Shown: in pieces, positions 5,681-51,500 of the stretch
Position numbering within the stretch: the first letter of the stretch is position 1
Layout: each line of letters begins with the position of its first letter
From: Escherichia phage BAU.Micro_ELP-22
Sequence record: OR699282.2
Length of the DNA stretch: 64,000 nucleotides
Reading direction: 5' to 3' (one strand)
Notes under the pieces: generated by a model
Seen by the model: the letters and a program-made list of their open reading frames with translations, nothing else
Told to the model about the DNA's origin: nothing
Database searches by the model: none
Position numbers and translations under genes: made by a program

Positions 5681-5687
5681 AACACTA

Positions 5688-5712
5688 AGGGAACCTTTTG
5701 GTTCCCTTTTTT
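5688..5712 (+). terminator. rho-independent terminator
   Basis: AGGGAACC-tttt-GGTTCCCT then TTTTTT, immediately after the sheath stop. Confidence 0.65.
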
Positions 5713-5759
5713 ATTGATTAAAATTAAATACCTTTATATTGATGTTATAAAGGAACATT

Positions 5760-5885: not shown

Positions 5886-6075
5886 AAAATACGAAGTATA
5901 CACAAATGGAAAATGGTCTATATCAGTAAACTATATTGACCACACTAAACGAAAAAGATACTTATATTGTGTTAATATTAATTGGTTCCCTGTTGATGAC
6001 ACTTTAGTTAATTAAAAATATACTTCCAGATAGATAAATAATATAAAGATGTCATTCCATAATAGGAGAATATAA

Positions 6076-7645: not shown

Positions 7646-9753
<2,108 letters not shown>

Positions 9754-10317: not shown

Positions 10318-10320
10318 CAC

Positions 10321-30105: not shown

Positions 30106-30194
30106 TTATACCCTCCATTATAACCTTGTTAATATGTATATATTTAGTTTTATTATGCTGTTATCCAACAATTAATATGTTATTTGACAAAAGC

Positions 30195-30240
30195 AAATAT
30201 AATAAAAAACCAGACTTATTTAGAACAAGTCTGGTTAATT
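30195..30240. terminator. hairpin with T-tracts on both strands, just after the 30244-31140 stop
   Basis: AACCAGACTT-9 nt-AAGTCTGGTT. Confidence 0.55.
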
Positions 30241-30243
30241 TTT

Positions 30244-31140
30244 TTACTTACCAGAGATTACAATCTTACCACTGAAAGAAATATCAGAAGTGAAGATTAC
30301 ATCACCAGTACTACTAATTTGTGTATCAGTCACTACCAATTCAAATGGAGATGACGCAACACTCCCAGGTGTTTTATTTGCATAAATTGAAATATACAAA
30401 TTATCTGGTGTTTGATTGTGTTCAGATGCAGGAATAGTGATTGTAAAATCACCAGCACTAGAAACCCAATCTGCTTGGTTTACCAATTTACTATAAGGTA
30501 CTGTCATTGTTGTTGCTCCTATAATGTTTACTTTAACACTTGCATAATCTGTGATTTGACCAATCACATCAATTGTTATATCCCCAATACCACTAACTGT
30601 TACTGTGGTTTGGAATACTGATTCCAATGCAACATTACCTGGGTCACCTTGTAGTTGGATCATAATATCAGAACCTCTACCATGAACTGATTCTGGTAGT
30701 GTGTAAGTATAATGATCAGTAGTATCTGGTACTAATGTAAATGCAGAAACAGGAACTATTTCAGTAGTTACATATGAACTATCAGTCCCAGGTGAGCTAC
30801 CTTTAAATGGTTTCCAAATACCAAGATCTTTAATATAAATTTGAAGAACATTAGTACTATCAACCAAAAAGTAAACGTCACCATCTAGACCGATTGAATC
30901 GGATGGTGCTGTTGTTCCACGTAAGATACCAGAACTACCACCACCACTGTGTGCGTTTAAATATCCCAATGTAACCAAGTGTGTGTTTGCAGTTGGTTCA
31001 CCTGCTGAAATTGGAAGAAGTTGTGTTCCTGAGTAGTTTTGAATTTGCACAACACTACCATTTGTGGTAATCTGTGCACCATTCTTCCCAAGAATGAAGG
31101 ACTTCTTCATGGTTCCTTCTAAATTAGAAAAAACTGCCAT
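30244..31140 (-). CDS. receptor-binding protein (short) sharing an N-terminal domain with the adjacent tailspike
   Basis: N-terminus MAVFSNLEGTMKKSFILGKNGAQI... parallels MAVFSNFEGTMQPKFILGKKGASI... of 31157-33298. Confidence 0.5.
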   Translation of the reverse strand: MAVFSNLEGTMKKSFILGKNGAQITTNGSVVQIQNYSGTQLLPISAGEPTANTHLVTLGYLNAHSGGGSSGILRGTTAPSDSIGLDGDVYFLVDSTNVLQIYIKDLGIWKPFKGSSPGTDSSYVTTEIVPVSAFTLVPDTTDHYTYTLPESVHGRGSDIMIQLQGDPGNVALESVFQTTVTVSGIGDITIDVIGQITDYASVKVNIIGATTMTVPYSKLVNQADWVSSAGDFTITIPASEHNQTPDNLYISIYANKTPGSVASSPFELVVTDTQISSTGDVIFTSDISFSGKIVISGK

Positions 31141-31156
31141 TTTAATATAATCTCCT

Positions 31157-33298: not shown

Positions 33299-33312
33299 TA
33301 TGACATCCTCCC

Positions 33313-34428
33313 TTAAATATTATCTTGAATCGGTTGGATAGGAGCTTGCCATGAAAGAGTACAAATAATTTCCATTTTTCCATAAGGACTGTTGTTAACA
33401 GAATCGTTGAATACACATGAAATAATTTCATCAACATCGGATGCTGCATGATTAGTTTCATTAACAATAAAACGCATCTGACGATTGATATCAAAGTAGG
33501 AAGTTGGTGCAATTACCGTCCCGCCAATATCTTCTTGTGCTTCACCACCAAAACGTACAAACATATCAGTTACTGGAAGAGAATAAGGTTGTATAACGTT
33601 TACATCAATATTAGAAACTACATATCCAGCAGGACATGTACCAATAACTAATAGTGCGTTAGTCCATGAGCTATCTATGGTATTTCTAATAGAAATTGTA
33701 TCTTTACCTGGTGCACCTGGTTCGCCTTGTATACCTTGAATACCTTGCTGACCTTCTTTACCACGGAATAGAATACCATCACTCCACTCTTTTGAAGGAG
33801 GGGTAGTTGTAGTTACTTCATCAACATAATATAGTTTTCCATCAGTGTTGTTATAAAAACAATAATCAACTGGAAGATTTTCAATACTTGGAAATTGATC
33901 ACCACTGCTATCAATATGGAAACGACCACGCGGACCTTGTTCACCACGGAAAGGTATACCATCACTCCAAGTAGCAGTTACACTTTGATAGAAATAAAGT
34001 TTACCATCTTGAGTATTATAAAATGTATAGTTATTAAAAAGACCAGTTGTTGGGAAAGTAGTTCCAGCACTATCAATGTGGAACGGCTTACCCGCTTCAC
34101 CCGTATCACCTTTACCAAACTCAACACTAATCCATGTACTTGTCGGATCTTGTGCATCATTTGATTTAAAGTATAGAGTACTGGTATTGTTAGCCAAGCT
34201 TAAGTAGCACCACCCAAGTGGTTCACCAACTTTAAATTGTTCGGAAGGAATTTCAAAACCAATCTCATTAGGATAAAAGTTTTTACCATTCTCGCCATTC
34301 TGTCCTACAACAAGACCTAAATCTTGAATTGTGTTATCTGCATAGGTTACAATTAAATGCCCAGCACCATTAATAACTAGACTTTTGATGCCGGAGTTAT
34401 TACATGAACCATTAAATGAAATTGTCAT
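33313..34428 (-). CDS. tail fibre protein with short collagen-like Gly-X-Y runs
   Basis: RGEQGPRG and GKEGQQGIQGIQGEPGAPGKD; ORF-track start 34464 is TTG, first ATG with AAGGGAAA SD at 34428. Confidence 0.5.
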   Translation of the reverse strand: MTISFNGSCNNSGIKSLVINGAGHLIVTYADNTIQDLGLVVGQNGENGKNFYPNEIGFEIPSEQFKVGEPLGWCYLSLANNTSTLYFKSNDAQDPTSTWISVEFGKGDTGEAGKPFHIDSAGTTFPTTGLFNNYTFYNTQDGKLYFYQSVTATWSDGIPFRGEQGPRGRFHIDSSGDQFPSIENLPVDYCFYNNTDGKLYYVDEVTTTTPPSKEWSDGILFRGKEGQQGIQGIQGEPGAPGKDTISIRNTIDSSWTNALLVIGTCPAGYVVSNIDVNVIQPYSLPVTDMFVRFGGEAQEDIGGTVIAPTSYFDINRQMRFIVNETNHAASDVDEIISCVFNDSVNNSPYGKMEIICTLSWQAPIQPIQDNI

Positions 34429-34538
34429 AATATTTCCCTTGTATGAGTTAATGTCATATACCAATATTTATCAGTACAAAATACATTTCGTTATCATTAA
34501 TAAATAAATGAAAGTTCACTACTAAAAGGGCTTAAACA

Positions 34539-35036
34539 ATGGCATTAAGATCAAAAGACTTTCTCTTCAGAAGAAAAACAAAAGATGGTTCATGGCAAGA
34601 TTTTCCTGAATCTGATAGCTGGTATCCAGCTAACTTGGATTATCACTGGAATGAACAAACGTTACCACTCGCAAGTGGTGGCTACTATGGCTGTACTACA
34701 GGTTTACATACTATTTCATTTACACTACGTAATTTTATTGGTAGAATTTATGTATTAGCTACATTAGCTAGTAATCCTACTGATGATGATTGGTTTCCAA
34801 TTAAATTCACTGAAAGTTGTAATTATTATCTTGAATTTACTGATATGGTTATTTTAAATCCAAATGGTGGGGATTTAATTAGACAACAAGGAACTACCGG
34901 AACATTTGCTGAAACAGTAACTGGTAATTTTACTTACCTTAAAGTTGGTATAGACCGTGATTATATTAGTAAGTATCCATCAGATGTCCAAAAAAGTTTA
35001 GCTGGGAAGTTAGAACAAATTTTAATTAACTACTAA
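34539..35036 (+). CDS. hypothetical protein
   Basis: ATG start, divergent from the fibre block. Confidence 0.4.
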   Translation: MALRSKDFLFRRKTKDGSWQDFPESDSWYPANLDYHWNEQTLPLASGGYYGCTTGLHTISFTLRNFIGRIYVLATLASNPTDDDWFPIKFTESCNYYLEFTDMVILNPNGGDLIRQQGTTGTFAETVTGNFTYLKVGIDRDYISKYPSDVQKSLAGKLEQILINY

Positions 35037-35045
35037 GGATTAGAA

Positions 35046-35654
35046 ATGAAATTAGAAACAGAACAACCAAAACTATTTGTTAAAGGTCATGTCCTAATTA
35101 CTGACGTTACTGATCCATCAAATCAAAAAATCGTTTTAGATAAATCTAACGCTATTCACCCTGAAAATATGAGTACTGCCATTGCTAATGCGTTAGCATA
35201 TAATCAAGACAGTACTGGTATTCCTATTGGTTCTATTAGCGAGATGCGTTTTGGTAATGGTGGTACAGTAGTTTTAAGTACTGGTCGTGTTACTTATAAA
35301 AAACCACGTGTTACATCATTCGGTGGTTTGTATTCACAAACATATTTGAAAAAAATCAACCCACGAATTACGGCAGGTATTGATTCACAATACAATAATA
35401 TTACAACTGTACATATACCAGGACAGTCCTATACTGATATTGTATGTATTTGTACTCTAGGGTTAGGTGAACCATCCGACCAAGGTGTAAGCTCAGGGAC
35501 AAGCATGGATGGAACTTATGTATTTGATGAATTGGGATTGTACACGGATGGCGATAGTGGTATTCCTTTAACCCATATCATTTTTCACCCAGTTGAGAAA
35601 AGTGCAAACCGTGTCTTACAAATTAAATACACAGTTCGTGTACAATTACAATAA
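35046..35654 (+). CDS. hypothetical protein (possible baseplate or fibre accessory)
   Basis: ATG start; position only. Confidence 0.4.
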   Translation: MKLETEQPKLFVKGHVLITDVTDPSNQKIVLDKSNAIHPENMSTAIANALAYNQDSTGIPIGSISEMRFGNGGTVVLSTGRVTYKKPRVTSFGGLYSQTYLKKINPRITAGIDSQYNNITTVHIPGQSYTDIVCICTLGLGEPSDQGVSSGTSMDGTYVFDELGLYTDGDSGIPLTHIIFHPVEKSANRVLQIKYTVRVQLQ

Positions 35655-35666
35655 TGGGGACATATA

Positions 35667-36767
35667 ATGAGTGTTAATTATACAATTTATAGAAGTAATG
35701 GTAGTGTTTATGCTACCATTCCAAATAATGTTATTTTAGGACCAAACCAACCCGGAAGTAACCCAGTTCCGTTAAATTTAGTTGGTAGAAATAAAGTAAG
35801 TTACGGTCAAGCATGGAATGAAAACTTTTTACATTTAGTTGAAAATTTCAGTTCAGCATCTGCACCACGTGGCAACGTCAATGGTCAACTTTGGTATAGA
35901 AACACTGGTAGTACTGGTGAGTTATTGATATCATTAGTTGATAATGCTAGACAACCTGCTGATATGGTAAGTGAAGCTGAATGGGCGTCTATCCCTATGA
36001 TTACTGTTTTTAACACAGTACCTGATGGTGAAAATAGTGTTATGGGTCGTATGGTATTAACTAGTAACGGTGATTCTCTTCGTGTGTTAATGAAAAACAA
36101 AGAATGGCGTGAAATTCAAACATCTAGACCAGAAAACAAAGAGTATTCATCATTATTAGATATTAACTATGATAATGGTAAAAAATATATAGAGTTCACA
36201 CAAAGTAATAGTACTAAACCGATTGCGTATTTTAACTTAGGTGGTACTTCACAAGTAGATACAAATAACTGGACAACATTAACTAATGGTACTGGTGTCT
36301 TTGAATTTGGTAGCAACTATTTCTATGAATTAAAAATTATGATTAGAGAAGTAAATGATTCTTCTGGTGAGATAGTTTCTCTTCCATACAATTCCAAAAC
36401 CTTTTTTATAAAAGGGCAATTTTATGTAGATAATCAAGGAACTTTTGTTCCTGGTTCGGTGGGGGCAAGTCAAATGCCAGACCCACGTAGGATTACACAA
36501 TTAGAATCCATTAAAGATGTTATTACCAGTAGTCGCCCAAACTGGGACGTAAATATTGTTATTAATGGTGTAGATCCATCTATCCCAAATCCTAATGGAA
36601 CATCTAAAGCTGATTATGAAAATTGGGTTATCAATTCTCTAAACTCAAATAAAAATTTAGGTTTTCGAGTTGATGGTAGTATTAGTAATCTAACTGCTGG
36701 TGAATCCGTTAAACTACAAGCATCCGTGTTGTTAAATATTACAGGTATTCCGATTATTGGAGTATAA
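35667..36767 (+). CDS. hypothetical protein
   Basis: ATG start; no motif. Confidence 0.4.
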   Translation: MSVNYTIYRSNGSVYATIPNNVILGPNQPGSNPVPLNLVGRNKVSYGQAWNENFLHLVENFSSASAPRGNVNGQLWYRNTGSTGELLISLVDNARQPADMVSEAEWASIPMITVFNTVPDGENSVMGRMVLTSNGDSLRVLMKNKEWREIQTSRPENKEYSSLLDINYDNGKKYIEFTQSNSTKPIAYFNLGGTSQVDTNNWTTLTNGTGVFEFGSNYFYELKIMIREVNDSSGEIVSLPYNSKTFFIKGQFYVDNQGTFVPGSVGASQMPDPRRITQLESIKDVITSSRPNWDVNIVINGVDPSIPNPNGTSKADYENWVINSLNSNKNLGFRVDGSISNLTAGESVKLQASVLLNITGIPIIGV

Positions 36768-36800
36768 AAAAAAAGGAGCCACACGGCTCCTTTTTGTTTT
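36766..36800. terminator. bidirectional rho-independent terminator
   Basis: AAAAAAAA-GGAGCC-acac-GGCTCC-TTTTTGTTTT between convergent genes. Confidence 0.7.
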
Positions 36801-37263
36801 AATATCTATATGGTAAACTGTTGACAAACTGTGTACCTTCACGTATACTTTCCCATAGTGAGTAAAAATCTTTCATTAAGTTTGTGTTAAGTAAAGTATT
36901 TTTAGCACCAGGGTGTAATGGTTTAGGCCAAGAACCAATTCTAACCCAAGCATAACCAGAGCTTTCATGATTTAAAGTTGGTACAAATTCATTCTCAACT
37001 ACAATAACAAATGAATAATATTTAAATTTACCATTTTTTGTACAAAATACATCAAACGGTATAATATCAATAATGTTAGGTATTGAGTTGCCCAACTCTT
37101 CTTTAATTTCTCTCATCAGACCTTGTAGTGGTGTTTCGTTATGTTCAAGCTTTCCACCAACAAATGCCCAGTTGTTAGAATAGGTACTTCTTTCAGAACG
37201 CAAGTTTAACATCATATGTCCAGTACTTTTTGATAAAAATATAGCACCAACCGCTTCATTCAT
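36799..37263 (-). CDS. Nudix hydrolase
   Basis: Canonical Nudix box GGKLEHNETPLQGLMREIKEELG (Gx5Ex7REUxEExGU); AGGAGG SD. Confidence 0.8.
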   Translation of the reverse strand: MNEAVGAIFLSKSTGHMMLNLRSERSTYSNNWAFVGGKLEHNETPLQGLMREIKEELGNSIPNIIDIIPFDVFCTKNGKFKYYSFVIVVENEFVPTLNHESSGYAWVRIGSWPKPLHPGAKNTLLNTNLMKDFYSLWESIREGTQFVNSLPYRY

Positions 37264-37276
37264 AACAACACCTCCT

Positions 37277-38620
37277 TTATTTGTCAGTGAAAGTTATTTT
37301 CCAATATCCCTGACGATACACAGGCATGATACTTTTATGCCATTTAAATTTGTCATTATATCTATAATAACCATTGTCTTCTTTATTATAAATGTAATTT
37401 CGTACAGTAGATGGTTCAATTAATTGTGCACCGTCATTTGTAATTTTAAACAAATAATTTGATGGGATTTCGGTTTCTTTATAAATGATGTTATGTATAC
37501 TGTTATTTACATAATATTGTTCAGGTAATGCACTTGAAAGTACTGAATCTTTCTGCACAAACCCATGTATAGTGTAATCAACAGTATAATTGGTATTATC
37601 AAGCTGTACTATAATTTTGTTGGCATCTTCATTTTCACCATACGACGCTATATGACCTTTTAGTGGGTTGTCTTCTTCAATAGATTGTTGAAATTTAATC
37701 CCTACTTTTTTGTCATCAAAATTTGGTTCTAGATATTTAAGATATTTTTCCCATGAATATATTCCACCGTTGGGAGAAACCGCAGATAGCGATTGGCTAA
37801 CCAAGGTAAGTTGGTATGTATCAGGTAAATTATACTTGGAATTAGTAATTTCTTCAACTTTAATGCATAAATTCTTGGGTGTAAAAACATCTGTTATTAT
37901 ATCTGAATAATTTCCCATTTCAAAATCAAATTCGTCACGAGCACCTTTAATATTTGTAGTAATCTGTTGGATTAATTTGGGTTTTTCAACAATAGCTGGT
38001 AAAGAAAACCATATTGTCGTTTCAAATGTTAAAACCATTATATCCAAATCTGGGTCAGTTCCTTGTGGAAAACCACGAGTAGAAAACTGACAATCTATTA
38101 GTTCAACATCACTAAGCGATGTCCAATCTAACGGGTTATCAGATAATTGAAGTTGTATACTAGGTGCAAACAAAGTTGAGATTTGTTCGAATAATTCCAT
38201 TTTAGTTTGAGTTTGAGTTACCCAAATATTCAAATCAAACGTAAAAGTCCAAGGTACTGGGTTATGTCTTACAATTTTGTATTGTGTGTCAAGATCTTTT
38301 GTGTACTCATTAATAGCAGGGGACTTGTTAGACCCCATTACTATAGTTTCGTTGGCATTAGAACGAATATTTTTACGATCCAACTTTAGTTGATTAACAC
38401 TTATGGTCATTATAGGTGCTGATGGGAGAACATTTTCACTATTCCCATTTATAATTGCTGCTGCCATTCTTGAAATATCGGCATAGCGACATGGAACCTT
38501 TTTGTATTTTGGGTTTCCATTAGCATCAATACCATTTTGTACTTGAAATTCACCAAAAACTCTGATAAGATGTTTCAGTACTCTGCGAAATTGACCGTCA
38601 TAATAATAATCTATTTTCAT
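37277..38620 (-). CDS. hypothetical protein
   Basis: ATG start overlaps the upstream stop (ATGA). Confidence 0.45.
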   Translation of the reverse strand: MKIDYYYDGQFRRVLKHLIRVFGEFQVQNGIDANGNPKYKKVPCRYADISRMAAAIINGNSENVLPSAPIMTISVNQLKLDRKNIRSNANETIVMGSNKSPAINEYTKDLDTQYKIVRHNPVPWTFTFDLNIWVTQTQTKMELFEQISTLFAPSIQLQLSDNPLDWTSLSDVELIDCQFSTRGFPQGTDPDLDIMVLTFETTIWFSLPAIVEKPKLIQQITTNIKGARDEFDFEMGNYSDIITDVFTPKNLCIKVEEITNSKYNLPDTYQLTLVSQSLSAVSPNGGIYSWEKYLKYLEPNFDDKKVGIKFQQSIEEDNPLKGHIASYGENEDANKIIVQLDNTNYTVDYTIHGFVQKDSVLSSALPEQYYVNNSIHNIIYKETEIPSNYLFKITNDGAQLIEPSTVRNYIYNKEDNGYYRYNDKFKWHKSIMPVYRQGYWKITFTDK

Positions 38621-40110
38621 TCTGTGTCCTTATGTATGCGATAAACAGTATTAGGCTTAACTGCGTCATGTAATGGAACTTTGTTATCACTATTTACAAA
38701 CTGTGTAAGTGCTAAGTCTGCACCTTCCCACGGTTTTCTTCCACCATAATCAAAAATAACCCATGAATTCTTAGTTGCATTGAATTCCCATAACGTAACT
38801 GGAGTATAATCGGTGCGATAGAAATAGTCACCATCTACTGCATCAGTTGGGAACATATTTCCTTCAGGGACTGTACCTCGTGCTGGTGGAATTTTAGGAC
38901 GATAATCTTGTTGCGAATCAATATTACCATATACACAATTGGACGTGAATGGTTCATTGACATAAGTTACCTTTGGTTCCCCCCACTTGTCATCATTATA
39001 CTGATAAATGTGTGGTTCTTTATAAAAAATACAAAAATCTTCCACATCTTCTGGTGGAACATCACTGGTAGTATATTCTACATCACAATTTAACCATTTT
39101 TTAGCACTTTTATCATATTGATACAACGTATAACCTGTCACATCTGCGTCATTTTCTTTAAAGAAGAAGTCACCATCCATTGGTTTTCTGGGAAAGATGG
39201 TTCCACGCTTGACTTCCACAGAAATCCATGTATCATTAACAAACTCTTTGAGTACTGGGTATGTTTTTTTCAAAAAATACATTCCATTGGCAGGTTCTTC
39301 TGGAAAATCATAACCGTTAAGCATATATTTTGATAAATCTACTGTATCAGGTCGATCATCATACAAATGTTCATTTGTATAATGAATATAGGGTACTTCA
39401 TCATCAGCTTGCATGATGATACGGTTCATGATATCCATTTCATTGCCATAGTTACTGTTTTCCGACGAACCATCATCGGTATTTCCATTACCATTATTAG
39501 GGTCATCTGGATTATCAGGATAATTATTGTTACCGAGTAAATCGGAGTACTCAGGTGAGTCGGTTAGCGGTTTAACTCTAAGTTTATAAATGTGATGTTG
39601 CCACGTAACCGAGTATCCCTCAGATGTACGAAATGCATCTTGGACGACATAGAAGCGGTTTAGACCTGTATCTTTACCCAATACATCAAAATCACGTAAA
39701 TTTGGTAGTTCTATCACATCCCCTGGCATGATTTTTCTACCTAAACGCTGCATCATTGTATTATAATGGATTGTGATGTCCATAGTGTTGAAATTAAAGA
39801 ACAATCCTGGGATTTTCAAGTCTGGAGTTGCTTCTTGAACTTGATAGACACAACTAAGTGTGATAGCTTCAAGGTTGTAGTTTCTGTTTGGTGTGTCACC
39901 AAAAATTAAATCGCCAATACTTGACACAACTGATCCTGAAGATGTATAATCACCTCCATAGGATAAGTCAGTGTTGTCAGCAACTTGTTTTGGACCGACA
40001 TATGCATAAAGCCACATGTCAACTCCACCAATGTTGTATTGTTCAGCAATGGCAGAATCAATGAACTTGTAATCATTGGTTCTACCTTTTTTCCACATTC
40101 TATATGTCAT
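38617..40110 (-). CDS. hypothetical protein
   Basis: ORF-track start 40122 is TTG; first ATG with GGAGA SD at 40110; D/N/G-rich low-complexity segment. Confidence 0.45.
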   Translation of the reverse strand: MTYRMWKKGRTNDYKFIDSAIAEQYNIGGVDMWLYAYVGPKQVADNTDLSYGGDYTSSGSVVSSIGDLIFGDTPNRNYNLEAITLSCVYQVQEATPDLKIPGLFFNFNTMDITIHYNTMMQRLGRKIMPGDVIELPNLRDFDVLGKDTGLNRFYVVQDAFRTSEGYSVTWQHHIYKLRVKPLTDSPEYSDLLGNNNYPDNPDDPNNGNGNTDDGSSENSNYGNEMDIMNRIIMQADDEVPYIHYTNEHLYDDRPDTVDLSKYMLNGYDFPEEPANGMYFLKKTYPVLKEFVNDTWISVEVKRGTIFPRKPMDGDFFFKENDADVTGYTLYQYDKSAKKWLNCDVEYTTSDVPPEDVEDFCIFYKEPHIYQYNDDKWGEPKVTYVNEPFTSNCVYGNIDSQQDYRPKIPPARGTVPEGNMFPTDAVDGDYFYRTDYTPVTLWEFNATKNSWVIFDYGGRKPWEGADLALTQFVNSDNKVPLHDAVKPNTVYRIHKDTE

Positions 40111-40152: not shown

Positions 40153-40180
40153 TAGACAAACCGTAAGAATGTGATATAAT
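40153..40180 (+). promoter_or_regulatory. sigma70-type promoter (TAGACA, 16 nt, TGaTATAAT)
   Basis: -35-like 40153-40158; TG 40172-40173; TATAAT 40175-40180. Confidence 0.55.
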
Positions 40181-40220
40181 GTTTATTAATTAGAGTGACG
40201 TGAATCACATAGGAGAATAC

Positions 40221-42509
40221 ATGAATCTTACTCAATTGTTCAAAAAAAGCGACGAACTGGCAACATCTCTAGGTCATACATTCTTGACTATTGACCACGT
40301 AAGTGCCACAGTACTGACTATTGATAGCATCAAGAACGTATTTGAAGATATGAACATTGATGCAGACAAACTGCACAACCGCCTGATGAACTATCTTAAA
40401 AATACAACAGTTCCACATGCACCAAAAAGTGTTAAAGATGAAGACGCGAATCGCACTTCACTTCTAGTGAATCGCGTTGTACATGAGCTTTCTAAAAAAT
40501 CAGTTATTGAACAACTAAAAAGTGATGATTTTTCGATTGATGCATATTTTGTTCTATTCGAATGTCTGTCTTTCCCTAACACAGCACTAGAAGCTGCGTT
40601 AAAAGAAGAAGGTGTTAGCTGTACTGAAGCTGCACGTGCATTACAGAAACATGTTGAGTCACTTGATAAGGGTATCAACTTACAAAGTATTAATGACGAA
40701 CCGATTGGAGATAAAAAAGTGGCCCAACAGCAGCAATCATCTAAACAAAAAGGTTTGGAAGACTATACAACGAATCTAACTGCTCTTGCAAAAGAAGGCA
40801 AACTAGATCCTATGATTGGTCGCCAGAAAGAATTGTCTGCATTGATTGAGACTCTTGCTCGCAAAACCAAAAAGAATGCTATTCTCACTGGTGAAGCTGG
40901 TGTAGGTAAAACACAAATCATCGACGGGCTTGCACAAGCTATTGCTGATGGTAACGTACCTGAACACTTGAAAGACGTTGAAATTCTTTCACTAAATGTT
41001 GGTGCATTGACTGCTGGTACTAAGTATCGTGGTGAGTTTGAAGAACGCATCGACAATTTGCTAAAAGAACTAAAGAAACGTGAAAATACTATTGTTTTCA
41101 TTGATGAAATTCATATTATGGTTGGGGCTGGTTCCGCAAGTAATGGTTCTATGGACATGAGCAATATGCTTAAGCCAGCACTTTCACGTGGTGAGATTCG
41201 TGTAATTGGTGCAACAACATATGATGAATATCGTAAAAATATCGAGAAAGATAGTGCATTAACTCGTCGTTTTATGAAAATTGACGTAGTTGAGCCGACA
41301 ATTGATGAAACTCGTGCAATTGTTAATGGTTTGAAACCAACGTATGAAAAATTCCATAATGTTGAGTTCACATCTGATGCAATGGATGCTGTAATTTCTC
41401 TCAGTGATAAATTCCTGAAGAATAAGCACTTCCCAGATAAAGCAATTGATCTAATGGATGCTGCTGCGGCTAAAGTTCGTTCACGTGACAACAATAGTAA
41501 GCTTATTACTGCCAATTTGATTCAAGAAGTTGTTGCTGGTATTGCCAATTTGGATATCAACGTGGTTGCATGTACTGAAAGTGATCGTATGCGTAATCTA
41601 CCAGATGCACTACGCTCACGTGTATACGGTCAAGAGGAAGCTATTCAAAAATTAGTTGATAACGTGATGGTAGCTCGTGCAGGACTGCGTGACAAATCTA
41701 GTGTTCAGGGTGCATTTATGTTTGTTGGACCATCTGGTACTGGTAAAACAGAAATTACCAAAGCATTAGCAGACGCAACTGGTGCGGAACTCATTCGCTT
41801 TGATATGTCAGAATTTTCACAAGAACATACTGTTTCTAAACTAATTGGTTCACCTCCAGGTTATGTTGGTCATGATTCTGGTAACGGTTTACTGTTGGAT
41901 AAAATTGAGCAGTTCCCTAATGCAGTACTGTTACTTGATGAAATTGAAAAAGCAGATCGTAAAGTACTACTAACCTTCCTACAGGTTTTGGATGAAGGTC
42001 GTCTGACTGGTTCTCAAGGTAAAACTGTATATTTTAATAACGTAACTGTTATTATGACTACAAACCTTGGTGCGGCTGATTCAACAAAGCGTAGCATTGG
42101 TATGAGCGGTAGTGACACTGCACAGGACAAGGCAATTAAAGCATTCTTGCCACCAGAGTTTATTAACCGTATTGATAGTATCGTTACGTTTAAAGACCTA
42201 AGCAGTGAAGCTATTGACAGCATCATTGATAAGTTCATGGGTGGTTTGAATGAACAAGTCAAAGACCGTAATGTTAAAGTTACATTGACAAAAGCTGCAC
42301 GTGAATGGCTTGCGAAAAATGGGGTAAAAGTTGGTATGGGTGCACGTCCAATGAAACGTACCATTGAACAAAACATTCGTGTGCCACTAGCTAAAGAAAT
42401 GTTGTGTGGTTCACTTGTGAATGGTGGTAACATTACATTTGATGTTATTGATGGTAAAATCGGTATTAAGCCGAAACGTACCAAAGCTGTAGATAAAGCA
42501 CTAGTATAA
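40221..42509 (+). CDS. ClpA-like double AAA+ unfoldase
   Basis: D1 Walker A GEAGVGKT and Walker B IVFIDEIH; D2 Walker A GPSGTGKT and Walker [10 protein letters not shown]; C-terminal [13 protein letters not shown]; IGM tripeptide in the D2 loop; ORF-track start 40200 is GTG, ATG with AGGAG SD at 40221. Confidence 0.85.
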
Positions 42510-42546
42510 AAAAAAGAAAAGGAGAGCATTATGCTCTCCTTTTTTA
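42508..42546. terminator. bidirectional rho-independent terminator
   Basis: A-run, GGAGAGC-attat-GCTCTCC, then TTTTTTATT between convergent genes. Confidence 0.7.
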
Positions 42547-45500
42547 TTACTTAACTAATAATATATTTTTAATATCATTACCACTAACTTGTAGACTATC
42601 AGTGTATACTGAAAGATCTATAGTGTAACTATTTTGTGTGTAACGTTTTAACATATCATAATTACCTAAATTAATTCCATTGAAAGAATATGTAGTATTA
42701 AGTTTAAAATCATGTTCTGCACTATACATTACACCACGGAGTAAATTATTTGCATTTCTAACTTCAACTTTTTCATATCCAATCGATATAATATCATTCA
42801 TGTTCGCGGCTGAACCGGATAAAACATTATTTCTAATACTATAAGGACTTATTGATTTAGGTTGAGAAACATAGGTTGTATTTTCTTCACTAATGGTTGT
42901 GATGTTAGTAACAGTACCCCCAACAACACCGATATACATACCGTCAACCATTGGGAATCCATAAACCCATATCCCTTCATTATTTCTAAACGGTTGAATA
43001 ACACTTGAATCATATTCGATAACGTTGATTTCTAAACTATCAGTCATTTTAGTTCTTGCCAATTCACTAAGAACTCCCGCACCCGTAATTGGTAAGTTAT
43101 AACCGTTATCGATAGTAATTCCATCAACATCAAATATTTCATTGGAGATTATCCAAACGTCAACGTCATCTGGTGTTATTCCGTCATTGTACTTACCACC
43201 ATTTAAAGTAGTATCGTAGAAAACATCATAATTAATTACATCAATGGTGTAATTTCTATTTTGTTCATACAATTTAATACCATTCTTGACAAATTCAGGG
43301 TCAGCAAATGTTCTAACACGAACAATGTTCAATGCTAGAGGCTGTACTGGCTCATTTTGTTGTGCAAGAGTGATGTTATCATAACGGAGAACTGCACCAG
43401 TACTCTCATCAATCAATTCAATCGTTTCCTTACCTGTATTTCTTACAGTGAATAGGATCGGAGTTGTATTGTTTTTGATGTTAGATACACGCAAGATTGT
43501 TTCCCATGTGTGATTTTGATATCTCACAAAATCTTCACCATCAGGAGTGAAAATCATCACCTTATCACCATCAGATAGGTCATTGTCAACTATTTCTGCT
43601 TCAGTTAAGCTATTAATAGATCTCACACGATAGAAATATTTTTCATCAAACTTCGATGTTGTTTTATTAATATCATTTTCAATCTTAGCATATGAAGGAA
43701 TACTTACAATTGCTTCTGTATGTTTATATGGATTGATAATTGCCATACCTTCAGTTTGATATCTGCTGTTATCACGTAATTGTACAAGAGATACATTGTC
43801 AAACCCATATCCATCAACTGTAAATCTAATTTGTCCAACATCACGCCCAGAAGGGTTTATGTCAGATATATCCACAATATAAGGATCAACTTCATCATCT
43901 TTAACTTCCCATTTTATTGAAGAAGTTTGAGATTCCAATGCTAGGTTATCAAATGCATTCATATCATTGAAGTACTTAGCTTCAGTAATACTATCAAGTA
44001 TATATTGATAATCAGAATACATTGGATTATTTTGATCTAGTGGTAAATCATCAAGATTTATTTCAGCTAGTTCAACCATTTCACCATTTGTGATAAAATA
44101 ATCTTCCATGAAATCATCAATACTTTGTTCATCAGGTATACTTTGATATACACCGTTAACATTTAAGTAAACATATTTTCGTGGAATCATTGTAATTGCA
44201 TAGATATCAATTGGGGTCTTACTAAGAATCTCTTCAGCTTTTTCGTACTTATCAGTAGCGTCTTTGTCGAATAACCCTCTCATACCTGCTAATACGTGAA
44301 TAGCATCAGTATAGAAACGGGTATCACCACCTACTTCATCATAACGATAAACATATACACCATACTCAACTTCAAGTTTAACTTTTACTTCATAGTCTGA
44401 TGCGTCAGGATTTTTATCTTTAATTAATGAAATGTATTTTTGATACAATTCACTGCTTATTTCAAAATATCCATAGTTATAATCATTACTAGAAGAAAAG
44501 CCTAATGGAAGTCTAGTACTAGGATTGTCATTATAAGTAAGTCCACTAAATCCACATCCAACTTCATCGTGAATTTTCTCATCACTTATATCTTTATAAA
44601 GTTTCAAACGGTTTGCCAATGTGTTATACTGAACATATTGTCTAAGGTCAGTAAACATATCGTTATGCGTTGATTCTTTATAAACACGTTCCAATGTAGC
44701 AGTGAATTCATCAGTTGCTTCTAAATCTTCCGCATGGTCTTTATACCACTGGTTAACGCCATATGCTGTTCCTAGTGTTACATCCAATTCTGGATAGTAG
44801 ATTTGCATTTGATAAGCAATAAGAAGATCGAAAGTTTCTTCACTATATTCTGGGAAAGAATATATATAACGTTGTAATTCATAGTTACTAACAGCATCCT
44901 TTTCATTGGATTGATATTTGTTATTAACACTTACTAATTCATTTATGCTTGCCAAATCTTCATTTGGTTTACACTGAATATTATCATAATGCATAATAAT
45001 ATCAATTTCTTGGAATCTTCTATTTGGTGTAACGAAATCACTTGGTAGTGAACCTACCTGTTCCCATTTTTGGGTAATTTCATTAAATTGAGCGTACTCA
45101 TAATCCCAAATATCTTTTTCAGTTTTGATCCAAGAACTGTCAACGAAAATATATCCATTAGGATCTAAATCATTACATAGACCTTTTATTAAATCATCAT
45201 CAGATGTCTTTTGCTCTATTTGTGAACGAATTTTAGTTCTATAAGGTTTAACTTCTTCAAAATATTCAACAATTTGATTAATCAAATTATCGTTTGAATA
45301 GTTTTGAACTAATGATTGTTCCAAACCAACAATATAGATATATGATGTTTTAAATACCCAATCCACAACACTTTGTTCAACATGTACATATTTGACCATA
45401 TCAAAAACAATTTCGCTTTGATGTAAATCGAAAGAATTTTTGAGTAAAGCTAGTGCTTTACGAACGTTGATTTCACGATTGCTTAGTGAACCATTATCAT

Positions 45501-48500
45501 TATGAACACTATAATCTGCGTAAAGCATATCATTGAGTTCAACTGTACTGTTTTCACGACCAATCGCTTTCCAATAAATTGAATCGCGTGATTGTGATTT
45601 AATATACAATGTCCAAATGTTTTCACTATCGGTAACTCTGATAATATCGCCAACTTGGTAGTTTTTAGTATTAGCATCTTCTAAGCTTGACTCTTGAGTA
45701 TAAGTCGTGTTACTATCATATCCAACATCATACCAATCAGCATATGACCAGTACTGAGTCATGTCTAATGAGGTTCCTAGTGATTCAACATAATCAGATT
45801 GTTTAATCATTTTATGTTGTCCCTCACCTTTGTTTTCTAACGTTATAGTAACAACACTACCCGCGTTTGCTGGACTATTCATTAACTGAATATATCCATT
45901 TTCGTCGAAGTGAATAAAATAAACAGCACTAGAAGTTAATGGATTTGGTAGATATCCACTAGTACTTAAAATAACAGCGTCATTTTCTTTAAATTTATCA
46001 CTTTCAACTGCAATAACTAATTCATTATTGTAAGACAACACACGGAAAGAAACTTCATTAGGGTTAACTTCAGTGGTTTTAACATTAAACACATCTTCCA
46101 TAACAACACTATTAGTGGTTATGTTTTGTGACCTATAATAATTATTAGCACTTTCTACAAAGTTTCTACGAGCTTCTATAACATTTTGGAACCAAGTTTT
46201 GTTTGATCCTAAACCGTTATCAACATCTGGATATAATAAATTAATCACAGAACCTGATTCAGTTGTTTCTTGACCAATTAGTGAGTTCCACATTGAATCC
46301 CAAATTAGTGGGTTAAAGTTATAGCTGTCACCTTCTTTACATAGTTGATACTGGTCATGTTTAACAACTTCAGTACTATCCATGTAATAAGAAACAGTTA
46401 AAATACTGGTATCATCATTCACTTTAAATTGCATATTACTAAGAATAAACGAGTTTTCATTTATTGGAGCGAACCAAGGAATGTTTAGCTGTGTTGGATC
46501 TTTAATAATACGAGCAATGTCAGTACATGATTTCGTTCTGGTATGTAGTGGTGGTACATAAATTGTATCACGTACCCAGAAATAGTATTTTGTCACATAA
46601 CTATCAGTTGAACTATCATATTCCAAAAATGTACTATAATTATCTTCAAGTGCAGTTCCACTTGGTAGATACATAGTATTATTTTTGTTTTTCTTAGCAA
46701 CATCTTTACAGTATTTGTCCCAGTTATATGGCTCAACTGGTGAACAAACCCACTCTAACACATCAATGGTACTATGTGGCAACAAACGGCCCCAGTTGTA
46801 ACGTTTGTATTCATTGGTTGCATCAATATCAACATTACCGTCTGCGTCATAAATTGCACGAGTATAATCCAAATAAAATGCAGTGCTAGTGTTCCACCAT
46901 ACTTGACCAACTTTATCAGCACCCCAAGCCTGGATTAACTCTCCATTACTATTATACTGTGCAGGATCAACTGGTGAAGTATATGTTACGTTTTGCATAG
47001 CCGCACCTGGAATAACACCATTAATTGGGTCATAAACATTTAGATATAGCTCAGTAATGTTAGTACGTTCATCATATGTCGTTGGACGATCAAATAAAGT
47101 ACTTTGTGGTGCTTTAAAACTATATTTCTTGTCAATGTAAGCTTGACGTTCATCAGTACTGGCAAAACGTGATACATAACGATACAAACGTGGACGTGTA
47201 TCTGGATCAGTAAATTCAATATCAATAGAAGTGTCAAATGGAACTACCATAACTTTAGGATCAGAACCAGCAGTATAATATTGACTTTCTACTGTTAAAG
47301 TATCTGGCATAAAGTTAGTTTCATCAACAAAATAATAATAATCACCATCTTCAAGTGGTACATTATCAGTTAAAGTTACTTTACAAAATTGTTCAGCATA
47401 CACATCGGTATTTTCAATAGGTGTTATAGAAACCATTTGCACATTAGTATCAACCAATTCAAAAATGTTCCACAAACCATTACCGTCTTTAAACATCCAC
47501 ACAGATTCAGGATTTTCACCTTTACCATTAGTATAAGTTATGCGGTCATTATATGCAGTACTGAAATCTTTTGTTGTGTACGATACTTCATCCAATGTTA
47601 CTGGACCAATATCTGGAAGTTGGATGTTTTCACTTCTTCCACTACGCATTGGGAATGAGAACTTACCATTTGGACGTGTAATCCAACGAGGATCTTTACC
47701 TTGCTCACCGAAGTATACAATATGATTACCATTACCATTTGAAGTTGCATTTACATCAAAAGAAACCATTTGAGGTTGTTGTTTAAATTGGTCATTGATT
47801 AGTTTAAATTGAAGGTTTTTCTTACCATCAATATTACCATATGTACCAATTTTAAATGCCCATTCTTGTAATGCTTTATATTCATCAGTGTCATATGATT
47901 TAGAAACACGAAGTACACGTTCTAAAACTTGGTTAGTACCTTTATCGTGAATGAATCCTTTATAGAAATCAACACGACTAACATCACTACTAATCATACG
48001 CTGTAGATAATCACGAGATTGATAACCAATCAAATGGTTTGACAACTCTTGTAATTGTACATCACTTACTGGAGTTTCACTATCATAATAATGTTGGAAA
48101 TCCGACACTAATTTTTCAAATGATGGTAGTGTTCCAGCTTCCAAGATAATAAATCCAGGAGCTTGTAGGCGACCAGTCCATGAACCAGTAATATATCCAT
48201 ACATTTTAATTAGTTCTTGAATAGAACCATATGTTGGCTGATAAATGTAATCACCAAAAATAGTTTTATCATCAAAAATAACAGCATGTTCATATGAACA
48301 CAAACTTAAACGAATCAATGCAATGCGTTTATTAGATTCTAAAGTTCTAACAGTGAAGATATTTCCAATACGAGAAGTTTCAATTTCATATTGGCGAATA
48401 CCTTGGTTATTATCATCAAGTAATGACCATACACCACCATTATTTTGCGTAATAGATTGTACTGAACCAAAGTCTGCCCCAAATTTAGCGTTTGCAGCAC

Positions 48501-51500
48501 TTGGGGTACAAGAAATAAATTCACCAGTTACTAGAGAATTCTGACTCCAGATCACGAAATCTTTAGCAATAGTGTTCCAATCTTGTTGAGCACCACTATC
48601 ATTTACATCTTCAAAAATCCAACCATGTTCTTTAAGATATTCACCATATCCACAAATAAAAGTATAAACTTCTTGGTAACTATTGAAAACTTTACCATAT
48701 TCAATTGAAGCTTCAGACTTCCATTCATTATAATGAACAACATTACGGTTTTCCAATTTAAGAGTTACTTTTCTACCATTTTTTACTGGAAGTTTATATT
48801 TAAATTTAGCACCAACTAGATCATATCCATCAATCTGATATGCACTACCATTCCAAGTAATTTTGATCGCACTCATTTGCTCATCACGGATATTATTAGA
48901 ACGAACAAGACCAATGGTTTGGTTTTCTTGTGAAATAAGACCGAAAGATTTAGCATTGAATGTTAGCTGATCTGCTTTAGTAAATCCTCCAATTTTATGA
49001 CCAACATTTATATAAGAAGAACGAACTACATCCCCATACTTGGTAGTAATATTTTTATTTTGATACATCAAATGGTCACTTACAAACATTTGATAACCAA
49101 TTGTTCTTGTGCTATTTTCACCATGAACTACTGTATTTTTATCAAAATTAATACGCTTACGTGTATCACCATAAAGGAATTGTGAACCATCAGTGAATAC
49201 TTCTTTTAAGTTATCGTTGCGGGTATCCCAGAAATAGTTAGCAAATTGTGCTGGTTTAGCTTTATACAAAAGCATCATTTGGTCATATGCAAACAATGTA
49301 GTGTTCATGTATGTAAATTCCATGTCACCCATATCACCATATGTCCAAGGTTCTGCTCTATGATTTAAAGATCCAGACACTAAACCTAAAATTTCAGGTG
49401 CAATATATTCAACCACACAAATATCAATACCAGAAGATGTTTTATTTCCAGTTTTTGTAATTTTGAATGGCTGTACACCAAATCTTTTATATTTGTCATA
49501 TTGACCACGACGATCACCAAATAAAATAGTTCCAGTACTGCTATCGCCAATAGTTCCGTCAATATCCCAAAGACCACTAGGAACTAAATCACCTTGCTCA
49601 TTCATAACAAGTGCTTCATATACATATACAACATCACTATCACGTTCACCAACTTGAACAGCCGTTGGTTCGTATTCTTGGTTCCACCAAGTTGGACGTT
49701 GTGTAAAGCCAAACATTTCCCACGGATGGGTAGCTGGGCGATATGTACCATATTGGTCAGTGTAAATGGCACGCCATGAACCACGTGCAGGAATTTCAGT
49801 ACTTTGACCATTAACTACATAATAAGTGCCAGTATAGTTCCAAGTTCTCCAATTGTTAGGATCATAATCATGTGTACTATTACTGATACCATTAGTTGCG
49901 GTGAAGTTAATGTATCCACGTAGTAATAATGTTTGTTTCTCTTCAGCACTATATTCAGTTTTAGTGAAATATGGTGTAGGGAAAAGGTCATCACTATTCA
50001 ATACTGGTACGTAATCAACATCTTTGAATTTATTATCAATACTATTAAAAATTCTATTTTCTAATTCATATACAACATCATCCATTTTATCAACACCATT
50101 GATAACACGGTATGCTTTGGAAATAATACCAGTATGACTGATGTTATAACAGCTTGGTTTACTACCAGCAGTGAGGAATGTCGCTTTTTCTGGTACATAT
50201 GCTTGAAGAATACCTAAGAACTGTGGTGTTGGTGGTATAAATGCACGAATGAATCCAGAAGTACTTCCAACATTATCATAATAGAATGGGAATGAACTAT
50301 CACGTCCCATATTAATAGTAGTTAAAATTGCATCAACAATGTTTGCAGCACTATTTTGTAAAAAGTCTGATGGATTTTCATCATACATACGAAGCATTTG
50401 TGTATTAAATTTATTAATGAATCTAAAATATTCAGATTGCATAAACATAGTTGCTTCAAACAAATCAATATCTTCATTTGCAGTATGTGCCATCAATGGA
50501 AGCATAGATGCTTCATTTTGGATAATTTTAGTACCTACGCCATTATTAACCAATCCTTTAGCCAAACGTTCTTCATAGTCATTGAAATCATCAGAAGAAC
50601 CACGTGTAATGTTCTTTTGAATAATATCCTGAAAATGTAAAGTGTAGTCACCTTGGTTAATGTATATAATATTAGAATTATATGGGTTATTTTGTAGGTT
50701 GATTGGAACTTCATATGCACCTAATTCTTTATTAGGAGTTACAGTACTGCTATAAGTTCTAATTTGAATAACAGAATCTTCATCCAATTCTACAGTACTA
50801 TCTAGAGTGATGCTTTGTACTTGACCTTTTGAAACATTTTTGGTATATTTGGACACATCAACACCATCAACCACAACTTCAATAATATCAGAATCATTAT
50901 CTAAAACTTTTTGTGCCAATTCGAATGTATGGTCATATTTTACAATCTGAACACCATCACCAGTAATTGGATGCCAATCTAGATAAGTTTCACGGTCAGC
51001 TTTATAGTACTGATATGTTCTATCAACTTCAATAACATATGCATACATACCATCAACTGGTTCTTTAAAAACTTCCATATCATAAACAGTACTGAATACA
51101 CGATACATATCAGTACGTTGGACTTGTGGAGTTTGTTTTACAAATTGTTTAGAGTACTCTTCTGAACGAACCCAATCGGTTTGAAGATTCATTTCATTAT
51201 TTTCATCAATAATGTTATAATAGTATAAACCATCAATTTCAACTTCTTTTCCAAGATGGTCATAGGTATAACGTTGGGATTGTAAAAAGTTTTCATAAAT
51301 GTAATAATTATAATCACCAAGTTCAATGTTATATCCATATACACTATCAGTTGCATAGTTGTAATTTATTTTAAAACCAAACAACTCTGAACCTTTAAAG
51401 TTACTTGATGGATATGTAGTACTGTTGTCAAGTTTGATACCATTACGATCATAAAGTTGGAATTTAGGGAATACGTTAACACTAGTTTTTGATTGTGCAC

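Follow-up and report, generated by a model that had tools for sequence, protein, structure and literature searches.

A ClpA-type AAA+ protein of an Asteriusvirus jumbo phage and its putative phage-encoded ClpP and ClpS-like partners

The clpA locus

The window, a stretch of 64,000 nucleotides from Escherichia phage BAU.Micro_ELP-22 (OR699282.2), is Asteriusvirus genome sequence and matches phage UB at 99.8%. On its plus strand an open reading frame encoding a ClpA-like protein runs from a GTG codon at 40200 to position 42509. We place the coding sequence at 40221-42509 (762 aa plus stop), with the start that is also annotated in G17 and phAPEC6. As start codon we dropped the GTG at 40200, since a Shine-Dalgarno sequence, read directly, stands 5 nt before the ATG at 40221 (AGGAG, 40211-40215, plus strand) and this ATG agrees with the existing annotations. 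A sequence-only reading of this DNA had described a 763-aa product; the gene stands, while the length is corrected to 762 aa because the earlier count included the stop codon. The gene is not new. Dozens of GenBank records, including 121Q, PBECO4, slurp01, SP27, RaK2, GAP32 and CBB, already label it ClpA, the protein is 100% identical in SHEFM2K, slurp01, SP27 and ECO103 4-12-1, and phrog_4871 ('ATP-dependent protease'), a full-length match with 1035 bits, is the same gene. The literature notes clpA as conserved in Rak2-like phages, and our search for experiments on phage ClpA, ClpP or ClpS returned genome-description papers and one comparative review only.

A scan of the upstream region revealed a sigma-70-type promoter with an extended -10 element (TAGACA-16 nt-TGaTATAAT, 40153-40180, plus strand) that matches 11 of 12 positions and carries the TG. 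The extended -10 is kept at this position in JNE01, RaK2, PHA46 and CBB despite divergent surroundings. The promoter element TGATATAAT occurs 11 times on the plus strand of the window, and overall, promoter-like sites are no more frequent in this AT-rich region than expected (10 vs 10.1). Downstream lies a bidirectional intrinsic terminator, AAAAGGAGAGCAT T ATGCTCTCCTTTT (42517-42543), common to clpA and the convergent gene for a 3333-aa virion protein. The palindrome is bordered by an A-run and a T-run, the G17 annotation also gives it as a terminator, and in CBB and PHA46 the stem is kept with compensatory changes. The genes on both sides of clpA are virion genes on the opposite strand. That clpA is monocistronic, lies between structural operons and has an extended -10 promoter and a bidirectional terminator of its own, as the sequence-only description had it, is hence borne out, and promoter and terminator are conserved across genera. 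A T4-type late promoter before the divergent virion operon was considered as well. That region has kept a motif resembling TAAATA, but the window as a whole shows no excess of ATAAATAC (3 occurrences vs 7.5 expected), and this argument was dropped.

From Asteriusvirus to Mimasvirus, clpA keeps its place, with the 3333-aa virion gene on one side and the tail-completion operon on the other. This could speak for a lone unfoldase or remodeller that works independently of ClpP and aids the folding or assembly of giant virion proteins, the adjacent 3333-aa one among them. E. coli ClpA is active as a chaperone on its own. A suggestion of Iyer et al., as given in PMC7824862, assigns phage ClpA and ClpX such a helper role. 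We consider such a role quite unlikely here. The whole gene order of these genomes is collinear and therefore the conserved position carries little weight. Moreover, clpA is encoded on the opposite strand from its neighbours, is preceded by a sigma-70-type promoter unlike theirs and has its own terminator. The list of 62 virion proteins of phAPEC6 contains gp244, gp245 and gp248 but none of gp246c (ClpA), gp353c (ClpP) and gp164c (ClpS-like); CBB_235 (ClpA) is likewise absent from the CBB virion proteome, where 233, 234, 236 and 237 are present and a single ClpP peptide was detected. Since ClpA is missing from two virion proteomes that contain products of the genes on both sides, a direct role in the virion, which the sequence-only reading had entertained as assistance in assembly, is unlikely.

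A ClpA-type double-ring protein

The protein begins with a divergent Clp_N double repeat (aa 1-148; 40221-40664, plus strand, like all features of the protein given below), identified by Pfam and in the structure model. Repeat 1 at residues 11-59 scores 24.6 bits against the Pfam cutoff of 20.7, and in the AlphaFold model this N-terminal domain forms eight helices in a 4 + 4 arrangement. A flexible linker rich in Gln and Lys follows (aa 149-180; 40665-40760), with pLDDT below 50 at residues 156-176. The D1 AAA+ module (aa ~181-445; 40761-41555) contains Walker A GEAGVGKT at residues 224-231 (40890-40913), the pore loop KYRGEFE at 268-274 (41022-41042) and Walker B IVFIDEIH at 291-298 (41091-41114). 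The D2 module with its small domain (aa ~446-745; 41556-42455) carries Walker A GPSGTGKT at 503-510 (41727-41750), the pore loop GYVGH at 547-551 (41859-41873), a second Walker B at 569-578 (41925-41954) and the sensor-2 motif GMGARPMKR at 705-713 (42333-42359). The Pfam matches to these modules are AAA (D1), AAA_lid_9, AAA_2 (D2) and ClpB_D2-small.

Motif reading thus confirms that both AAA+ modules have their Walker A and B motifs intact, as had been claimed, and the same holds for the clade: little or no variation is seen in the catalytic motifs of both rings, in the pore-loop tyrosines or in the arginine fingers across 114 members. This conservation argues for an active motor. Phages do inhibit host proteases, T4 PinA acting on Lon being one example, and a protein of this kind might in principle be a decoy that ties up host ClpS, ClpP or substrates and performs no productive unfolding. 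Nothing specific to this gene favours a decoy, and with the motor motifs so well preserved we regard it as highly improbable.

The best profile for the protein is TIGR02639 (ClpA), which matches in one stretch from residue 3 to 740 with 754.7 bits. Against E. coli ClpA, phmmer gives E = 2.4e-180, again in one stretch (phage 17-741 on ClpA 20-734). By domain, identity to E. coli ClpA is 21.8% in the N domain, 50.6% in D1 and 46.0% in D2. The C-terminal region had been described as close to that of E. coli ClpA, and indeed the residues concerned align under 'mgarpmarviqd' in the phmmer alignment. The best-superposing solved structures in Foldseek are the ClpA chains of ClpAP complexes (TM 0.81-0.87, target-normalised). 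At the same time the scores stay below the NCBIfam equivalog cutoffs (TIGR02639, 754.7 vs 993.15; NF008263, 654.6 vs 1350). Within the phage clade identity is at least 54%, and the next-best matches are at 46% and lower. The protein is best placed in a separate phage clade of ClpA-like proteins and not as an equivalog of bacterial ClpA.

Models of ClpB, ClpV and ClpK match the protein in two separate stretches only, which indicates that it has no middle domain. An alignment check for this domain had been proposed with the original description, and its outcome agrees: the ClpA match is in one stretch and the two Walker A motifs are 279 aa apart, compared to 281 aa in E. coli ClpA. ClpB, ClpC and ClpX were ruled out as identities by profile and alignment searches. 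To our knowledge ClpB has no ClpP-docking loop. The features of a ClpB/Hsp104 disaggregase, an M domain together with the lack of such a loop, are not found in phage ClpA. On sequence grounds, the predicted gene product is confirmed as a double-ring AAA+ protein of the ClpA type that lacks a middle domain.

The docking loop and candidate ClpP partners

A ClpP-docking-type loop spans residues 617-636 (42069-42128), with the tripeptide IGM at residues 626-628 (42096-42104). The proposal that IGM occupies the position of the ClpA docking loop is upheld by the alignment, in which I626-G627-M628 fall into the same columns as ClpA I617-G618-L619, under 'erksIGLihqd'. In the AlphaFold model a coil of residues 615-633 connects a strand and a helix, and pLDDT drops below 50 at 624-630. 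Cryo-EM of ClpAP has shown that ClpA I617-G618-L619 insert into the ClpP pocket, while H621 and Q622 of the same loop contact ClpP R192 and E26 (bioRxiv 10.1101/820209). The phage loop is about five residues shorter than that of E. coli ClpA; Leu is replaced by Met, and the I620-H621-Q622 segment is missing. IGM fits the docking motif [ILV]-G-[FL] on a flexible D2 loop as a conservative variant, with Met for Leu/Phe.

Across the clade the tripeptide is variable. IGM, IGV, LGL and MGM occur alongside IGA, IGG, MSM and MNM; a hydrophobic-Gly-hydrophobic pattern is kept in 77 of 114 members and the strict motif [ILV]-G-[FL] in 21 of them. The remaining 37 have a non-canonical tripeptide (IGA, IGG, MSM, MNM and others), and their lineages retain ClpP. 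In column entropy, the three positions rank at the 87th, 61st and 93rd percentile among the positions of D2. In lineages with non-canonical tripeptides docking may be weak, different or perhaps lost, judging from these residues. That a third of the clade members are of this type would suit the ClpP-independent chaperone introduced above, whereas retention of the loop and of the hydrophobic-Gly-hydrophobic motif in the other 77 speaks against it.

The variation also bears on the identity of the peptidase. Phage ClpA might dock mainly on host ClpP through IGM, and so redirect host proteolysis or compete with host ClpX and ClpA. IGM is chemically near the IGL and IGF loops accommodated by the E. 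coli pocket and lies at the same position, and host ClpP is there from the start of infection. Against this stands the distribution of the tripeptide by host: E. coli phages have IGM or LGL, Klebsiella phages IGV and Salmonella phages MNM, even though the ClpP proteins of E. coli, Klebsiella and Salmonella should be nearly identical. Because the tripeptide differs among phages of hosts with such similar ClpP, it is unlikely, as far as these alignments indicate, that the conserved host pocket is the constraint on it. In addition, the ClpP-contacting residues H621 and Q622 of ClpA are deleted in the shorter phage loop, and the phage has its own ClpP, with an intact triad, that is co-conserved with ClpA. 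We therefore regard host ClpP as an unlikely main target.

The search for clpP or clpS homologues elsewhere in the genome, which the sequence-only reading had proposed, was positive. In Asteriusvirus they correspond to 121Q gp464 (ClpP) and gp48 (ClpS-like) and lie outside the window. At an identity of at least 60%, ClpA is found in 70 records and ClpP in 69; the ClpS-like gene is found in 71 Rak2-like records, and all three genes co-occur in about 70 Rak2-like phage records. This co-occurrence of ClpA with ClpP and ClpS-like genes is a further point against a chaperone that acts without ClpP. In Asteriusvirus the three genes do not form one operon and are dispersed over the genome, with ClpA and ClpP about 84 kb apart in SP27 and 121Q. 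The clpP gene sits among DNA-metabolism genes, and a separate prohead protease of the T4 gp21 type is present (phAPEC6 gp227c; CBB_255).

Phage ClpP has 231 aa, matches Pfam CLP_protease with 141 bits and shares 36% identity with E. coli ClpP over 90% of its length. The Ser-His-Asp triad is present in 121Q gp464 and phAPEC6 gp353c and unchanged in 66 of 66 members of the ClpP clade. The docking pocket of E. coli ClpP comprises 12 contact positions, L23, L48, F49, A52, Y60, Y62, F82, I90, M92, F112, L114 and L189 (10.1101/820209). In phage ClpP two of these are identical (Y62, M92), 6-7 are conservative and three non-conservative (Y60T, F82S, L114G), the alignment of the C-terminal strand (L189, R192) being ambiguous. 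The pocket is still hydrophobic but reshaped compared to E. coli ClpP, and from the sequence comparison it is not certain that it would accept a ClpA-type loop. We found no clear pattern of co-variation between the ClpA tripeptide and the ClpP pocket in about 10 genome pairs, a number too small for a test. Mean column entropy of the phage pocket is 1.13 bits compared to a protein average of 0.82 (permutation P = 0.075), no sign of special interface co-evolution, and a set of cellular-type ClpP proteins behaves likewise (1.11 vs 0.82, P = 0.057). As predicted docking partner, the ClpP of the phage is no less plausible than that of the host. With a ClpP and a ClpS-like gene in the phage itself, the claim for host ClpP is not supported as stated, and host ClpP is not the most economical reading.

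The ClpS-like protein lies just above the Pfam ClpS cutoff (24.7 bits vs 23). We take N34, D35, T38, M40 and H66 to be the residues of ClpS that bind the N-degron, and E79 and K84 those that bind ClpA. The phage protein keeps D35, T38 and E79 and carries the changes N34D, D36P, M40A, H66N and K84F. It is extended by about 70 aa at the N-terminus and about 35 aa at the C-terminus.

A putative phage Clp protease

We favour, with moderate confidence, the view that ClpA is the ATPase of a phage-encoded ClpS/ClpA/ClpP protease and is expressed from the sigma-70 promoter. ClpA would be the hexameric unfoldase of a proteolytic system carried by the phage, with ClpP (121Q gp464) and the ClpS-like adaptor (121Q gp48) as the other parts. 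Points against this view are the reshaped ClpP pocket, the non-canonical tripeptides of 37 clade members, the entropy result at the pocket, the scattered positions of the three genes and the ClpP peptide in CBB virions. Judging its timing from the promoter type, it would be produced in the infected cell apart from the surrounding virion genes. It might pass proteins to a ClpP tetradecamer through the IGM loops. The partner would most probably be the phage's own ClpP, whose pocket is reshaped with respect to E. coli ClpP, and host ClpP or mixed rings might serve as well. The ClpS-like protein, in which the N-degron pocket residues are partly kept, may select or modulate substrates via the ClpA N domain. 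Candidate substrates are host proteins, defence proteins and phage proteins that are misfolded or made in excess; a part in host proteolysis or in countering defence is at this stage speculation.

A bolder version, which we offer tentatively, is that ClpA, ClpP and the ClpS-like protein of Rak2-like jumbo phages constitute a degradation machine that is complete in itself and isolated from the Clp network of the host. The short and variable loop (IGM here, IGV, MGM, MSM or IGG elsewhere) would be matched to the reshaped ClpP pocket (Y60T, F82S/N, L114G), and the ClpS-like protein, altered in its N-degron pocket and extended at both ends, would deliver substrates chosen by the phage, for example host defence or housekeeping proteins.

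By itself the gene is of small weight, being a catalogued ClpA homologue in a well-sequenced phage genus. About 70 enterobacterial jumbo phages, however, retain ClpA, ClpP and ClpS-like genes with intact catalytic motifs. If the autonomous protease were real, it would be a compact case of a virus importing a whole pathway of regulated proteolysis, and it would provide naturally diverged pairs of ATPase loops and peptidase pockets, useful for studies of Clp ATPase-ClpP recognition.

Comparison with known Clp systems

One of the closest known relatives is E. coli ClpA (PDB 1KSF, 6W1Z, 7UIV), with which phage ClpA shares 42-43% identity, unbroken over 725 residues. The order of domains is common to both, a Clp_N double repeat followed by linker, D1, D2 and D2-small, with no middle domain. 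The Walker, pore-loop, arginine-finger and sensor-2 motifs agree, as does the column of the docking tripeptide. In D2 the phage protein differs from E. coli ClpA also by a one-residue insertion after the pore loop. The class I Hsp100 proteins with a middle domain, ClpC, ClpB and Hsp104, have two AAA+ rings and the Clp_N domain in common with phage ClpA, and ClpC-ClpP complexes are also among its Foldseek matches. They differ by the middle domain itself, and their models or structures fit phage ClpA as two separate stretches only.

Among phages, the nearest parallels are the Pseudomonas PA5oct/MIJ3 group and Agrobacterium phage Atu_ph07. The main text of an RNA-seq study of PA5oct does not mention Clp. 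In the PA5oct group the three clp genes lie within about 21 kb and are accompanied by ClpX, whereas in Asteriusvirus they are dispersed and no ClpX-like match was found among the matches listed (40 of 326 records; 14 Escherichia records matched, compared to about 33 Asteriusvirus records). ClpA of the PA5oct group is 41% identical to the protein described here, and in both of these parallels, as in Asteriusvirus, homologues of ClpA, ClpP and ClpS are found together in one jumbo phage genome (PMC6102473, PMC7824862).

Phage ClpA and its relatives

The clpA-like gene (40221-42509, + strand) encodes a product of 762 aa, and its ORF, start codon and ribosome-binding site were confirmed. Pfam identifies AAA, AAA_lid_9, AAA_2 and ClpB_D2-small in the protein, and Clp_N is matched above its cutoff when the N-terminal 175 residues are searched alone. 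The ClpA model ranks top in NCBIfam and is matched as a single stretch; the ClpB, ClpV, ClpK and ClpG models are matched in two. The Walker A motifs are 279 aa apart, compared to 281 aa in E. coli ClpA. Both observations show that a middle domain is absent, as the sequence-only reading had expected. Identity to E. coli ClpA is lowest in the N domain (22%) and higher in D1 (51%) and D2 (46%). In a phmmer search of PDB sequences, residues 17-741 align with ClpA 20-734 (E = 2.4e-180), placing the tripeptide IGM (I626-G627-M628) under the ClpA IGL and the C-terminal 13-residue segment under AMGARPMARVIQD. In an AlphaFold2 model (58-sequence alignment, mean pLDDT 79) eight helices make up the N domain, and the Gln-rich linker after it is disordered. 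Between the final strand of the D2 large subdomain and the helix that comes next, residues 615-633 are modelled as a coil (pLDDT <50 at 624-630); this is the location of the ClpA IGL loop. The ClpA-like C-terminal region and the IGM at the loop position, both proposed from the sequence alone, are thus upheld by the alignment and the modelled loop. The best Foldseek superpositions of the model are ClpA chains of ClpAP complexes (TM 0.81-0.87, target-normalised).

The 2394-base region with promoter and terminator (40153-42546) is 99.4-99.8% identical in about 20 Asteriusvirus genomes (UB, PBECO4, 121Q, slurp01, phAPEC6, G17 and others), and SHEFM2K, slurp01, SP27 and ECO103 4-12-1 encode an identical protein (100%). 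Remoter relatives of the region occur in jumbo phages of Klebsiella (RaK2, K64-1), Salmonella, Yersinia, Pectobacterium, Erwinia and Xanthomonas. Given these genome matches, the full-length match to the PHROG family phrog_4871 and the earlier literature, which includes Attai et al. and Iyer et al. 2021 (PMC7824862), the gene is therefore known and had been annotated before, even though the sequence observation was correct. The literature searched yielded no experiments on it.

Transcription unit and gene neighborhood

A sigma-70-type promoter (TAGACA-16-TGaTATAAT, 40153-40180, +) lies 41 nt 5' of the ATG, in an AT-rich stretch where such sites show no statistical enrichment. At the equivalent place JNE01, PHA46 and CBB carry TGTG(A/C)TATAAT and RaK2 carries TTGACA-18 with TGaTATAAT; across these phages the extended -10 persists while the remaining intergenic region has diverged. 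The terminator palindrome (42517-42543, both directions) is flanked by an A-run and a T-run, and its stem shows compensatory changes in CBB (GGGAGCCAT/ATGGCTCCC) and PHA46 (AGAGGGC/GCCCTCT). This cross-genus comparison of both elements bears out the idea of a single-gene unit with its own extended -10 promoter and bidirectional terminator, and support for the regulatory details is stronger than might be expected. The conserved elements argue that clpA forms a unit of its own, transcribed by the host sigma-70 RNA polymerase and antisense to both flanking virion operons. Since such a unit is of sigma-70 type and antisense to those operons, clpA would be expressed before the late genes.

The exact nonamer TGATATAAT occurs in 11 copies on the + strand of the window, including 1972, 2844, 8572, 10674, 14315, 17384, 20760, 23111, 40172 and 54597, and TGNTATAAT in 15, where 7.9 ± 2.9 would be expected. 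A number of copies sit directly 5' of + strand non-structural ORFs, and this suggests a common class of extended -10 promoters in the phage. A further site, a perfect TTGACA-18-TATAAT (39921-39950, +) followed by a terminator-like hairpin (40054-40083, +), lies about 270 nt upstream of clpA within a minus-strand virion gene. Hexamers and spacing are conserved in PHA46 and CBB with a different spacer sequence; JNE01 has the same TTGACA and spacing but GATAAT at -10, and RaK2 is without the site. The site might serve as a second clpA promoter or give rise to antisense RNA, or its conservation might be no more than that of virion-gene codons (VSS, DY).

ClpA itself is not a virion protein. The phAPEC6 order is that of the window: gp244 (baseplate wedge), gp245 (3333-aa protein), gp246c (ClpA), gp247 and gp248. 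The 62-protein phAPEC6 virion list contains gp244, gp245 and gp248 and lacks gp246c, as well as ClpP and the ClpS-like protein. CBB shares the gene order, and its ClpA (CBB_235, 62% identical) was undetected in a virion proteome in which CBB_233, 234, 236 and 237 were found; CBB ClpP is represented there by a single peptide. The ORF convergent with clpA (42547-52548, -; full-length match to phrog_10938) encodes the 3333-aa virion protein seen as phAPEC6 gp245 (381.9 kDa, 17 peptides) and CBB_236 (21 peptides). A MutT/NUDIX hydrolase gene (36799-37263, -) sits inside the tail-completion operon, a position kept in G17, phAPEC6 and CBB.

Phage-encoded ClpP and ClpS-like proteins

Neither clpP nor a clpS-like gene lies inside the window. 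The sequence-only reading had raised the question of such genes elsewhere in the genome, and both exist in related phages, as noted for other jumbo phages (Iyer et al. 2021, PMC7824862). With E. coli ClpP as tblastn query we found a 231-aa homolog in Asteriusvirus genomes (Ecwhy_1 gp313, 121Q gp464, phAPEC6 gp353c, SP27 'clpP1'). It scores 141 bits with Pfam CLP_protease, the Ser-His-Asp triad does not vary among the 66 clade members retrieved, its gene neighbors DNA-ligase, phosphatase and dCMP-deaminase genes, and it is separate from the T4 gp21-type prohead protease. In the ClpAP cryo-EM structure ClpA I617, G618, L619 and I620 enter a ClpP pocket formed by L23, L48, F49, A52, Y60, Y62, F82, I90, M92, F112, L114 and L189 (10.1101/820209). 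In the phage protein Y62 and M92 are identical, L23M, L48V, F49W, A52S, I90V and F112L are conservative, and at three positions a small residue takes the place of a bulky one: Y60T, F82S (N in most other lineages) and L114G. The pocket thus appears still largely hydrophobic, yet reshaped. Beyond the L189/R192 strand, where the alignment is ambiguous, the phage proteins carry a conserved C-terminal extension of about 25 aa. This extension (consensus about G-x-R-N-E-x-G-x-Y-x-V-K-R-R-x-G-x-x-x-W-V in the phage ClpP clade) is absent from cellular ClpP, and in E. coli the strand is part of the ATPase-docking pocket. Near clpP in 121Q (209364-220056; at 57-284, 9057-9665 and 9993-10589 of that stretch) are three further proteostasis-type genes: gp457, DnaJ zinc-finger-like; gp473, a second, very weak ClpP-like protein (16.7 bits, below cutoff); and gp475, annotated HslV-like and without a Pfam match. 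Together they point to a larger set of phage proteostasis genes.

An E. coli ClpS query reaches only GAP32, Yersinia and Erwinia relatives. With the GAP32 protein as query, a ClpS-like protein of 181 aa was found in 71 Rak2-like records, among them that of 121Q, where gp48 carries the annotation 'protease adapter protein ClpS'. Its Pfam ClpS score is just above the cutoff; the protein has long N- and C-terminal extensions and a ClpS fold. Judged by the functional residues of E. coli ClpS, D35, T38 and E79 are kept and N34D, D36P, M40A, H66N and K84F are changed, and its substrate pocket probably differs from that of the canonical N-degron reader. In 121Q (4472-6151 of the stretch 29473-40003) an IF3-like translation initiation factor gene precedes the clpS-like gene by 13 nt and a KTSC-domain gene comes directly after it; genes for DHFR, RNase H and Dda helicase belong to the same run. 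The organization in GAP32 is the same.

Record counts agree for the three: 70 for ClpA and 69 for ClpP (each at least 60% identity) and 71 for the ClpS-like protein. No ClpX homolog from Asteriusvirus was among the matches listed. The 100% identical E. coli clpP-clpX in short 'phage' records (OR845177.1 = EC22.5-2, OR845448.1 and others) is host DNA, which inflates counts of phage-encoded Clp genes.

The docking partner

In the mechanism that we consider most likely, the ClpA-type unfoldase would be produced during infection and feed a ClpP peptidase, and we favor the phage's own ClpP as the more probable partner, because clpP and the clpS-like gene are co-conserved with clpA. Loop-pocket co-variation could not be shown, with too few paired genomes, and pocket variability in phage ClpP is no greater than in cellular ClpPs; the choice therefore rests on co-occurrence and parsimony. 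Docking as such is favored by the IGM at the right position and by a hydrophobic-Gly-hydrophobic tripeptide in 77 of 114 ClpA clade members. Phage ClpA and ClpX have been discussed as possible translocases or assembly chaperones (Iyer et al. 2021, PMC7824862); next to these docking features, a ClpP-independent chaperone seems quite improbable. Exclusive use of host ClpP, which the same features would allow, is also unlikely: the tripeptide positions are among the more variable of D2 (87th, 61st and 93rd percentiles), phages whose hosts are close relatives differ in the tripeptide (IGM and LGL in coliphages, IGV in RaK2, MNM in Salmonella 7t3), and a third of the clade carries IGA, IGG, MSM, MNM or similar. 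The docking loop of the phage protein, some five residues shorter than that of E. coli ClpA and without the H621 and Q622 contacts, likewise argues against host ClpP.
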